From positions 382,106,001 to 382,170,000 of the forward strand of contig OZ024740.1 in NCBI GenBank assembly GCA_964016885.1: a stretch of DNA of 64,000 nt. The letters run 5' to 3'. The notes beneath the pieces were generated by a model that worked only from the letters and a program-made list of their open reading frames with translations, was not told the DNA's origin and ran no database searches. Positions 36,064-56,644 of the stretch are shown here, in pieces. This stretch comes from Eledone cirrhosa. Its lineage: Eukaryota. A program made the position numbers and the translations under genes. How positions within the stretch are numbered: the stretch's first letter is position 1; every line of letters starts with the position of its first letter.

Positions 36064-36345
36064 TCTCTTGTTCACGATTTCACCGAGTTTATATTCATAG
36101 AGATCTGGGACTCGTCTATTTCTTCTCACTTTCCGTTGCTTAAACCATTTTGTTTGTTACCCTAACGTCCCCTTTATTTACGTGTCCCAACGACTTTTTT
36201 TAGCCGTTGTTCGCACCAACCTGAGGTATATGGCCCTTAAAGCGATGAAATGCCTGGGACGGTTGGAGGGTCACTGATGAAGGACTTACTTTTTCATATG
36301 CACCACCATTTGCAACGCGCAGCCATCATTATTATCATATTTATA
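36064..36345 (+). mobile_element. Solo pLTR plus tail of the non-coding element at 55662-56644
   Basis: Reverse-complement match to ~56345-56628; in (TA)n. Confidence 0.8.
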
Positions 36346-37760
36346 CATATATATATATATACATATATATATATATACATATATATATATACATATATAC
36401 ATATATATATACATATATATATATATATATACATATATATATATATTTATACATATATATATATATATATACATATATATATATATATATACATATATAT
36501 ATATATACACATATATATATATATATACATATATATATATATATATACATATATATATATATACATATATATATATACATATATATATATACATATATAC
36601 ATATATATATACATATATATATATATATATACATATATATATATATTTATACATATATATATATATATATACATATATATATATATATATACATATATAT
36701 ATATATACATATATATATATATATATACATATATATATATATATATACATATATATATACATATATATATATATATATACATATATATATATATATATAC
36801 ATATATATATACATATATATATATATATATACATATATATATACATATATATATATATATATACATATATATATATATATATACATATATATATATATAT
36901 ATACATATATATATATATATATACATATATATATATATATATACATATATATATATATATACATATATATATATATATACATATATATATATATATACAT
37001 ATATATATACATATATATATATATATACATATACATATATATATATATATACATATATATATATATATATACATATATATATACATATATATATATATAT
37101 ATATATATATATATATATATATATATATATATATATATATATATACATATGTATATATATACATATATATATATATATACATATGTATATATATACATAT
37201 ATATATATATATATACATATGTATATATATACATATATATATATATATATATATATATATACATATATATATATATATATATATATATACATATATATAT
37301 ATATATACATATATATATACATATATATATATATATATATACATATATATATATATACATATATATATATATATATACATATATATATCTATATACATAT
37401 ATATACATATATATATATATATACATATATATACATATATATATATATATATATATACATATATATATATATATATACATATATATACATATATATATAT
37501 ATATATACATATATATATATATATATACATATATATATACATATATATATATATATATATATATATATATATATATATATATATATATATACATATATAT
37601 ATATATACATATATATATATATACATATATATATATATACATATATATATATTTATATATATATATATACATATATATATATATACATATATATATATAT
37701 ACATATATATATATATACATATATATATATATATATATATATATATATATATATATATAT
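36346..37760. repeat. Degenerate (TA)n/(TACA) tract, ~1.4 kb
   Basis: Directly visible. Confidence 0.97.
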
Positions 37761-38033
37761 AACGAAGGAGGTGTGGTAAGGCACCAGATGGACCATAACG
37801 CACCAGAGGACTCAGTACTTAAGGTAGTAGAGTGGGTAATAGGAAAAAGTGTGATCCCGACGGCAGAGCTCAAGCCTTTTCGACGGCTATTTCTAGTCGA
37901 GAAATAGCCGTCGAAACGGCTTGAGCTCTGCCGTCGGGGTCATACTTTTTCCTATTACCCACTCTACTACCTTAAGTACTGAGTCCTCTGGTGCGTTATG
38001 GTCCATCTGGTGCCTTGCCACACCTCCTTCGTT
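37761..38033. mobile_element. 273-bp fold-back element carrying the 3' half of a hammerhead on each arm
   Basis: Near-perfect palindrome in (TA)n. GAAA-CGGC TTGAGCTCT GCCG-TC-GGGGTC at 37913-37941. Confidence 0.82.
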
Positions 38034-38183
38034 ATATATATATATATATATATATATGTAGGAGGTGAGTTTTATTGTAGTACAATAAAGCAATGCAGAT
38101 ATCGGATAAGAAGCACTCTACAGTTTGTGGGACTGGAGTATGCATAATATAAGATCAAAAGATGGTTAAAGGAGTTCAATATA

Positions 38184-38250
38184 TTTTATTATGCGCATTT
38201 CAAAAACAAACATCATCAAACAATAATATTTGTGTTTTCATCAGATAAAA
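38184..38250 (-). ncRNA. Type I hammerhead ribozyme (F3)
   Basis: Reverse complement of 42944-43010. Confidence 0.8.
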
Positions 38251-54483: not shown

Positions 54484-54645
54484 ATTGTTATACTTTGGGA
54501 GGGTCATGTTGCCAATAAGAAACATACGCACCAGTTGCTTTCACTTCAATTTATTATAAATTAAAACATAAATTTAAAAAAGATTTATAAATTTCCGGTT
54601 GGTTGGTTCCACAACCGGATGGTTGTTCATATATTGTCAAAGTTC
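54484..54645 (-). mobile_element. PLE family A 3'-terminal fragment
   Basis: Matches 23514-23674; truncated inside the HHR. Confidence 0.85.
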
Positions 54646-54689
54646 TATATATATATATATATTTTTTTTTTTTTTCATTCATATATAAT

Positions 54690-55192
54690 TTTTCCCCTCG
54701 CTGTGGTTCATCTTTTTTCTATCACCTTACTGCTATCCTCTTTCTCTCTCCTTCTTCTCTCTCCTTGTACGTTTTACTTTCATTCACCCCCCTCTGCCAG
54801 TCACACACTCTCTCGGCTGGCCTCTTCCTTACACTTTCACTCACTCACTCTCTGCTACTCCCCTCTCTCACTTCCTCCCGTCTGACCTGTGTGAAATCCT
54901 TTTCTCGCTCAGATTTCGCATGGTTCGGACGTGTCTTCCTCTTCTCGTCGATTGATTTGTCCGAACTTAAGTCCACAAGTATCATTGACTTTTCCTATCT
55001 TTACGTTGCATACTACCATATTGTTTGTTTACAGCCCCTCTTTCTCCATCCAATTCGCTCTGTCCCAATAACTTATTTTAGTTATTGCTTGCACTGAATT
55101 TGAGGTATCTGGTCTTTAATGCGAAGACATACCAATGATAGTCAGCAGATCACTGATGATGGACAGTCCCGTTTCTCGCTCTATTTTCATTC
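54690..55192 (+). mobile_element. Diverged relative of the 55662-56644 element
   Basis: Shares TGTCCCAA, TGAGGTAT..TTAA.GCGA..AT.CC and TCACTGATGA.GGAC. Confidence 0.6.
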
Positions 55193-55661
55193 ATATATAT
55201 ATATATAAATATATACAGTATATTAATAAATGGAAACTATATTTATAAAACCATATTTATTTTATTATTCATATTTCAAGGGCAACCAAGGCAAATTATG
55301 GTGCGCTTTCATCAGATAAAATACAGATTTGTTTTATAAATAAATATTGACATAGCAGGAAAAAAGACAACCTTAACGGTTGGAACTTCCTGGATAGTTG
55401 AGTTATAAAAATGTTTAAGCTTGTTGAATCCCCAAAAATTAAATATAACCTCTGTATATATATATATATATATATATATATATATATATATATATACATA
55501 TATATACGTATAAACATATATATACGTGTATACGTATATACATATATATACGTATATACATATACATACATATATATATATATATATACATATATATACA
55601 TATATATATATACATATATATACATATATATATATATATATATATATATATATATATATAT

Positions 55662-56644
55662 AAAAGTGAGTCCTTCATCAGTGACCCTCCAACCGTCCTC
55701 GGCATTTCATCGCTTTAAGGGCCATATGCCTCAGGTTGGTGCGAACAACGGCTAAAAGAAGTCGTTGGGACACGTAAATAAAGGGGGACGCTAGAGTAAC
55801 AACAAAAAAGTTTAAGCAACGGAAAGTGAGTAGAAATAGACAAGTCTCAGATCTCTATGAATATAAACTCTGTGAAATCGTGAACAAGAGACGAAAGACC
55901 ATCAAACCTGGTTGAAATGTGAGCAAGGAAAGAATTTCGCCCAAGTTTGACGGGGGGGAAAAAGAGAGAGAGAGAGAAAGGAGAGAAGAGGAAGATGAAG
56001 AAGAAGAAGAAGAAGAAGAAGAAGAAGAAGAAGAAGAAGAAGAAGAAGAAGAAGAAGAAGAAGAAAAGGAAGAAGAAGAAGGGGTCTGGTCTACGAATTC
56101 GGTAAACGCAAGTTTTGTGAAGTCGCAGACGAAAGAGAGAGAGAAAAAATGTTTCCATACCAGCTCGGTCAAGACCGCGCGAGAAAAGAATTACACACAG
56201 GTCAAACTTGAAGGAGGAGGAGGAGGAGAGGTAGTGACAGAGAATGAGTGAGTGAAAGTTGAGGAGAGAGTAACAGAGAGGGAGACTGCTAGAAGTGGTA
56301 AAGATACAAGGAACGAAACAGACGAAGGCGCATGGAAAAAATATATGTGTAAATATGATAATAATGGAGCTGCGGCGTTGCAAATGGGATACATATGAAA
56401 AAGTGAGTCCTTCATCAGTGACCCTCCAACCGTCCTCGGCATTTCATCGCTTTAAGGGCCATATGCCTCAGGTTGGTGCGAACAACGGCTAAAAAAAGTC
56501 GTTGGGACACGTAAACAAAGGGGGACGCTAGAGTAACAACAAAAAAGTTTAAGCAACGGAAAGTGAGTAGAAATAGACAAGTCCCAGATCTCTATGAATA
56601 TAAACTCTGTGAAATCGTGAACAAGAGACGAAAGACCATCAAAC
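55662..56644 (-). mobile_element. Non-autonomous element with 246-bp pseudo-LTRs (55662-55907, 56399-56644), period 737, in (TA)n
   Basis: Near-identical direct repeats, internal (GAA)n, CTGATGA near the 3' end of each repeat. Confidence 0.85.

Follow-up and report, generated by a model that had tools for sequence, protein, structure and literature searches.

We asked which RNA, if any, is encoded by a motif that recurs among the repeats of this locus, TGTCCCAA followed downstream by CTGANGA, and how it might serve the elements that carry it. The window (the whole 64,000-nt stretch of Eledone cirrhosa DNA that was analysed) contains five such matches at the places given by an earlier note (Table 1), against 0.01 expected by chance, and none of 100 shuffled sequences reached five. 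A sixth TGTCCCAA, at 35008 in the 3' region of a PLE, is followed by no core before the TA tract. The two copies within 55662-56644 are spaced 737 nt apart, and the helices named in the earlier note are present in the sequence. That note had described a new class of conserved structured RNA at the pLTR position, lacking GAAA and stem III. GAAA was indeed absent 3' of the core; however, one lies 27 nt 5' of CTGATGA, and its 3' flank pairs back to form stem III, so the supposed absence of this stem is refuted.

Every conserved hammerhead nucleotide was found, in the order cleavage site, GAAA and CUGANGA. The core (C3-U4-G5-A6-N7-G8-A9, G12-A13-A14-A15.1 and U16.1-H17) is complete in three window copies and, GAAA included, in the consensuses of families A, B and C, and is broken in the window's own B and C copies. 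Six possible orders of the hammerhead blocks have been named; CGS, GSC and SCG are types I-III, and the non-circular SGC and CSG have been shown to cleave (Eckert et al. 2023, PMC10085705). Types I, II and III were rejected here, the block order being SGC. Judged from its sequence, the motif is a complete hammerhead core in a non-circular strand order (type SGC), a kind already known from metatranscriptomes, and the proposal of a new RNA class therefore fails. Only one pair follows A9, the remainder of stem II being supplied by an upstream strand; because of this, the motif was classed as an SGC variant. In the 36 kb copy, that pair is A-U, between positions 10.1 (36281) and 11.1 (36246), and families A and B carry A-U or U-A there, not G-C. 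Two extra helices, P1 and P2, open just after A9, and the linker from stem I to stem II is UUAAW. The partner strands of distal stem II and of the helix joining stems I and II change together between families A/B and C/E, and for the joining helix different complementary pairs were read, without a formal count, from the consensuses of B, C, E and G. We infer that the RNA would fold as a double pseudoknot, and a hammerhead fold is very probable. Nested-fold z-scores were weak (-0.3 to -2.4), and nested folding cannot represent crossing helices. The comparison with Rfam proposed in the earlier note gave no hammerhead match in a targeted scan of 36150-36330, which returned one chance match; among the best 150 of 306 weak matches over the whole window, nearly all were microRNA models on simple repeats and none lay on the motif. 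A twister or HDV-like ribozyme was rejected, there being no Rfam match to the scanned interval apart from the chance one and the conserved positions being those of the hammerhead.

Table 1. Features of the window; ribozyme labels and cut sites are predicted.
Feature	Position	Strand	Remark
TGTCCCAA...CTGANGA match	36183-36280	+	pattern search of window
TGTCCCAA...CTGANGA match	55061-55159	+	pattern search of window
TGTCCCAA...CTGANGA match	56509-56412	-	pattern search of window
TGTCCCAA...CTGANGA match	55772-55675	-	pattern search of window
TGTCCCAA...CTGANGA match	50575-50472	-	pattern search of window
Family A element, 5'-truncated young copy between (TA)n tracts	36062..36349	+	99% identity to genomic copies
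Type-SGC hammerhead domain, intact	36184..36285	+	any-order descriptor
P1 5' strand	36184-36187, pairs with 36282-36285	+	nested-fold pair probability 0.87
P2 hairpin	36188-36209	+	nested-fold pair probability 0.56
Distal stem II partner, upstream strand	36211-36214, pairs with 36242-36245	+	
Stem I-II interaction helix strand, upstream strand	36216-36221, pairs with 36261-36266	+	
Block S	36225..36237	+	stem III strand 36225-36228 (pairs with 36251-36254), stem I strand 36231-36237 (pairs with 36267-36273)
U16.1-H17 in block S	36229-36230	+	cut after 36230
Block G	36242..36254	+	stem II strand, then position 11.1 at 36246
GAAA and stem III partner in block G	36247-36250; 36251-36254	+	
Block C	36267..36281	+	stem I partner 36267-36273, CTGATGA 36274-36280, position 10.1 at 36281
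Upstream GAAA in three window copies	36247-36250; 56445-56442; 55708-55705		sequence
Family A element, partial tandem, two pLTR copies	55656..56644	-	unit 737 nt, no long ORF
Type-SGC hammerhead, intact	56407..56508	-	cut after 56462
Type-SGC hammerhead, intact	55670..55771	-	cut after 55725
Family B element	54670..55204	+	~89% identical to other copies
Family B type-SGC hammerhead	55062..55164	+	GACA replacing GAAA at 55126-55129
Family C element, old copy	50264..50766	-	~80% identical to others
Family C ribozyme region	50466..50575	-	10-nt deletion across GAAA
Inverted PLE pair arms	38570-40461 and 40730-42621		
PLE with RT and C-terminal GIY-YIG	32430-34750	+	
LINE ORF	27656-30790	-	1045-aa open frame, AP endonuclease and RT domains

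A descriptor accepting the blocks in any order found three SGC, six type I and one weak GCS core in the window. With the stem I threshold one pair stricter, which all three SGC matches pass, 30 shuffles of the window gave no SGC. In a further 400 kb of the genome, of which 100 kb adjoins the window and 300 kb was taken at arbitrary places, the same descriptor found seven SGC and five type I cores, compared with at most 0.3 per order in 10 shuffles (SGC 0) and none in the reversed sequence. Across the genome, the exact A/B-type core pattern gave 12,852 matches versus 0 in the control. A pattern fixing the core and stem III only gave 60 matches versus 3 reversed. The six type I hammerheads of the window are canonical and belong to three families (C3 at 38244 -, 42950 +, 47939 -, 48062 +, 49266 + and 59054 -); the cores at 38244 and 42950 lie ~1250 nt past the ORF remnants of the inverted PLE pair. 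A minimal type I hammerhead-like core at 16743 on the minus strand, seen by eye and missed by the descriptor, follows a GIY-YIG-ending ORF by ~200 nt.

Copies of family A are ~99% identical to each other, those of family B 92-96% and those of family C ~80%. The B and C consensuses were derived from BLAST-collected copies selected without regard to structure. The full descriptor was passed by 39/41 family A copies, by 13/27 in the B set, which includes two A-type cross-matches, and by 4/20 family C copies. The generic pattern of core and stem III yielded additional families E-H, with only three matches for H, and family D was met in a flank. The three families carrying the motif had been called divergent; this does not apply to A and B, which are related, with 73/103 identical positions in their ribozymes and bodies that align at a similar level. 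The similar spacing from TGTCCCAA to the core is also seen in the window's C copy, but there it arises because of the 10-nt deletion across GAAA, and TGTCCCAA in C sits outside the inner helix that it forms in A and B. The ribozyme of this C copy is likely dead, and that of the B copy, whose GACA is a private change, is likely impaired.

The least biased test of pairing covered 30 of the 60 generic-pattern matches, misses included, with stem I and position 10.1 outside the pattern. Stem I in these loci formed 94/150 Watson-Crick pairs against 59.5 +/- 7.1 after shuffling (0/2000), a type of test that relatedness inflates; slid controls nonetheless dropped to 25-50%, and sliding gave 47-53 pairs in the same 30 loci. 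Opposite the fixed C, 23/30 loci had G at position 10.1. In a 22-sequence panel, 131/132 cells paired, all six pairs to which the formal count was restricted in the panel alignment changed on both sides, and stem II closed on A9/G12 in an atypical build, through a 10.1-11.1 pair of three types in 21/22 sequences (C-G 14, U-A 5, A-U 2); these counts are inflated because the panel was hand-picked and partly chosen by a pairing descriptor. Among 11 family representatives, 54/55 stem I, 43/44 stem III and 10/11 stem II pairs were formed. Across families, the catalytic positions are kept and the stems vary freely. The covariation check called for by the earlier note was thus positive, with covariation of stem I, stem II and stem III across several families of the genome, and its claim of a conserved structured RNA at the pLTR position is upheld.

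The carriers are non-coding, Penelope-like repeats without a long ORF, inserted in (TA)n tracts as head-to-tail units of 520-772 nt; they are 5'-truncated and at times inverted, and their 3' end is fixed, mostly ~50 nt past P1, running into (TA)n. Tandem units, a fixed 3' end, truncation, inversion and the lack of an ORF are the traits of a non-autonomous Penelope-like element or non-LTR retrozyme, features that Craig et al. (2021, PMC8557442) ascribe to PLEs. Among the family A insertions, 19/39 reach the upstream ribozyme, and 7 of these 19 have their 5' ends at +7 to +38 after the predicted cut (1.15 expected, p 8e-5). The insertions that run past the upstream cut site number 12/39, of which five stop at most 70 nt upstream of the cut (1.1 expected). 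A few of these 5' ends are inversion junctions, and none among the insertions examined lies exactly at +1. Such clustering could come from run-off at a cut end, from stalling at a stable knot or from the two together; copies extending past the cut site indicate that uncut or circular templates exist too. The 5' edge of the domain carries GUCCCAA, or a one-base variant of it, in families A, B, C and F and in the published Obim and Ovul ends; in family C it falls in a different helix, and families E and G lack it. It is possibly a protein-binding signal. In one family A-type element (L206:860-3330), an internal 129-nt segment is expanded to ~15 tandem copies.

Craig et al. (2021, PMC8557442), in the accessible text, detected canonical hammerheads in none of the Naiads, flagged eight cases where half a core is present, and suggested from this absence that hammerheads may only parasitise these elements. 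We inspected by eye the last 450-600 nt of 49/54 Naiad consensuses published there. Permuted hammerheads were seen in 17/49 of these 3' ends, SGC in 11 and CSG in 6, and no clear one in the other 32. The clear SGC cases are 3_Chem, Amil, Aacu, Anas, 2_Movir, Plae, EuTe, Smim, Obim, Ovul and Esco, with near-duplicates among them (three corals, two octopuses) and an imperfect stem II in Smim and Esco; the clear CSG cases are six nematode records (1-3_Nbra, Hcon, Hpol and Asuum). Again by eye, published Naiads of octopus, squid, coral, jellyfish, acanthocephalans and arthropods have the layout described here. In most of these autonomous SGCs, the partner of position 11.1 lies in the upstream strand instead. 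An SGC also terminates the published octopus Naiads, and its P2 loop is identical to that of family B. Five of the eight half-core cases resolved as permuted hammerheads, whereas Parc, 3_Dst and 4_Dst did not. Further Naiad 3' ends carry, by eye, either motifs that may be twister-like (4_Chem, 1_Movir, Mley, several clams and mussels) or a shared motif that may recall twister-sister (oysters, 1_Chem, 2_Chem and Skow).

Naiad motif and protein searches of the genome itself returned decayed remnants only. By eye, the Naiad RT remnants of this genome are similar to the Naiad proteins published for octopus. The one Naiad 3' UTR consensus that could be built has no CUGANGA, and the upstream flanks of SGC copies gave no match to Naiad RT by tblastn. 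In the loci examined, a GIY-YIG search led to elements with a C-terminal endonuclease; no SGC core lay within 750 nt after the ORF at any of 15 long GIY-YIG loci, the visible cores being type I. At L229:2400-2690, a truncated Naiad RT remnant is followed immediately, on the same strand, by a family F SGC copy, possibly through insertion of the copy or through an internal deletion. The search for an autonomous partner thus found no coding element with an SGC ribozyme in this genome. The Naiad link that had been suggested is supported by the published 3' ends as read by eye, and not by a linked Naiad here; we consider a Naiad-type partner fairly probable.

We postulate that an SGC hammerhead in the pLTR of non-coding Penelope-like elements cleaves itself after an NUH triplet and that the elements are likely mobilised by Naiads, a reading that we regard as quite likely; self-cleavage, taken alone, is likely. 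Cuts in successive tandem units would trim the transcript to unit length or set its 5' end. The carriers would be mobilised by Naiad-type proteins, with reverse transcription that begins at a (TA)n target, ~110 nt downstream of the cut site, and often ends at the upstream ribozyme.

Without any RNA structure, the motif might instead reflect neutral decay of commonly descended repeats, or else be a promoter or splice signal. Families A and B resemble each other as much outside the motif as within it, their ribozyme identity being no higher than their body identity; therefore, raw A-B conservation proves nothing, whereas the pattern of change does. The nested folding energies are likewise unremarkable. 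However, compensatory changes on both sides of three crossing helices, together with the blind stem I test and its slid and shuffled controls, contradict this explanation, which covariation largely refutes and which we regard as most improbable. A hammerhead-derived fold that cuts poorly, and that the element's reverse transcriptase or endonuclease uses as a signal for binding or priming, would suit the 5' ends clustering before and after the cut site with none at +1, the fixed 3' end ~50 nt past the domain, the recurrence of GUCCCAA in families A, B, C and F, and the slowness reported for published SGC ribozymes. Yet what the families conserve is precisely the set of catalytic positions, with the stems free to vary, and by eye other ribozyme classes apparently occupy the same place in other Naiads, suggesting that cutting is what matters; we consider a mere signal quite unlikely.

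The ribozyme could also cut while its carriers are moved by a C-terminal-endonuclease PLE (Neptune/Poseidon type) or another enzyme, an explanation that accepts the ribozyme and differs only in the partner. Family A copies are ~99% identical while all Naiad RT matches found are decayed, and long open Neptune-type ORFs are present in the genome; both are consistent with a non-Naiad partner. Against it stand the absence of an SGC core after the ORF in all 15 long GIY-YIG loci and the octopus Naiads that end in an SGC with family B's P2 loop, and such a partner appears unlikely to us. More broadly, we lean towards non-circular hammerheads being normal in Naiads across animal phyla, with molluscs, cnidarians, arthropods and acanthocephalans carrying split-stem-II SGC, nematodes carrying CSG, and other lineages having swapped these for twister-like ribozymes. 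If so, animal genomes would be the largest reservoir of knotted ribozymes, the Naiads' reported lack of ribozymes would be an artefact of searching, and almost all Penelope-like transposition would involve self-cleavage. This would account for the spread of Naiads without canonical hammerheads; standard hammerhead searches of animal genomes would miss the SGC form.

Cervera and de la Pena reportedly described, in 2014 and 2020, type I hammerheads in Penelope-like elements and animal non-LTR retrozymes. The type I retrozymes (bioRxiv 2026.07.22.740005) are likewise tandem, non-coding repeats derived from PLEs, with a hammerhead in their pLTR; however, theirs are circular permutations (C-G-S), often minimal, whereas the form in the window is pseudoknotted and escapes both the type I retrozyme descriptors and Rfam. 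The accessible text of that preprint makes no mention of SGC or CSG, and that of PMC13725137 states that hammerhead variants with extra helices or other permutations exist and goes no further. In the literature searched, outside which most subscription papers lie, SGC or CSG hammerheads were not reported from animal genomes or retrotransposons. Naiads (PMC8557442) share (TA)n targets, partial tandems and inverted 5'-truncated copies with the carriers in the window, but encode an N-terminal GIY-YIG and RT, whereas these carriers encode nothing.

Type CSG, with two metagenomic examples (PMC10085705), has the same reversed strand cycle opened elsewhere (Eckert et al. 2023), and this order is absent from the window. 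With type SGC (HRIMA-1 and variants, PMC10085705), the elements share the S-G-C block order, the full core and the helix joining stems I and II after stem III, with a gap of 0-8 nt; an uninterrupted block C was not found. The layout agrees with the validated SGC-3, whose linker, read from primers by eye, is UUA compared with UUAAW here, both short (PMC10085705). SGC-3 has one extra U after the core, whereas here the chain leaves into P1 at that place, and stem II and the interaction strand lie 3' of CUGANGA in published SGC ribozymes, whereas both come from the upstream strand here. The linker, the exit into P1 and the upstream strands indicate, therefore, an SGC knot opened at another point, with a multi-way junction in stem II, which adds a topology in which stem II is assembled from two strands. 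Natural non-circular permutations of RNA catalysts have been validated from environmental sequences, where host context is lacking, and type SGC, according to the accessible text, has not been found in the genomes of known organisms (PMC10085705); here, a non-circular hammerhead is placed in an animal genome, as chromosomal repeats of >12,000 copies with a biological setting.
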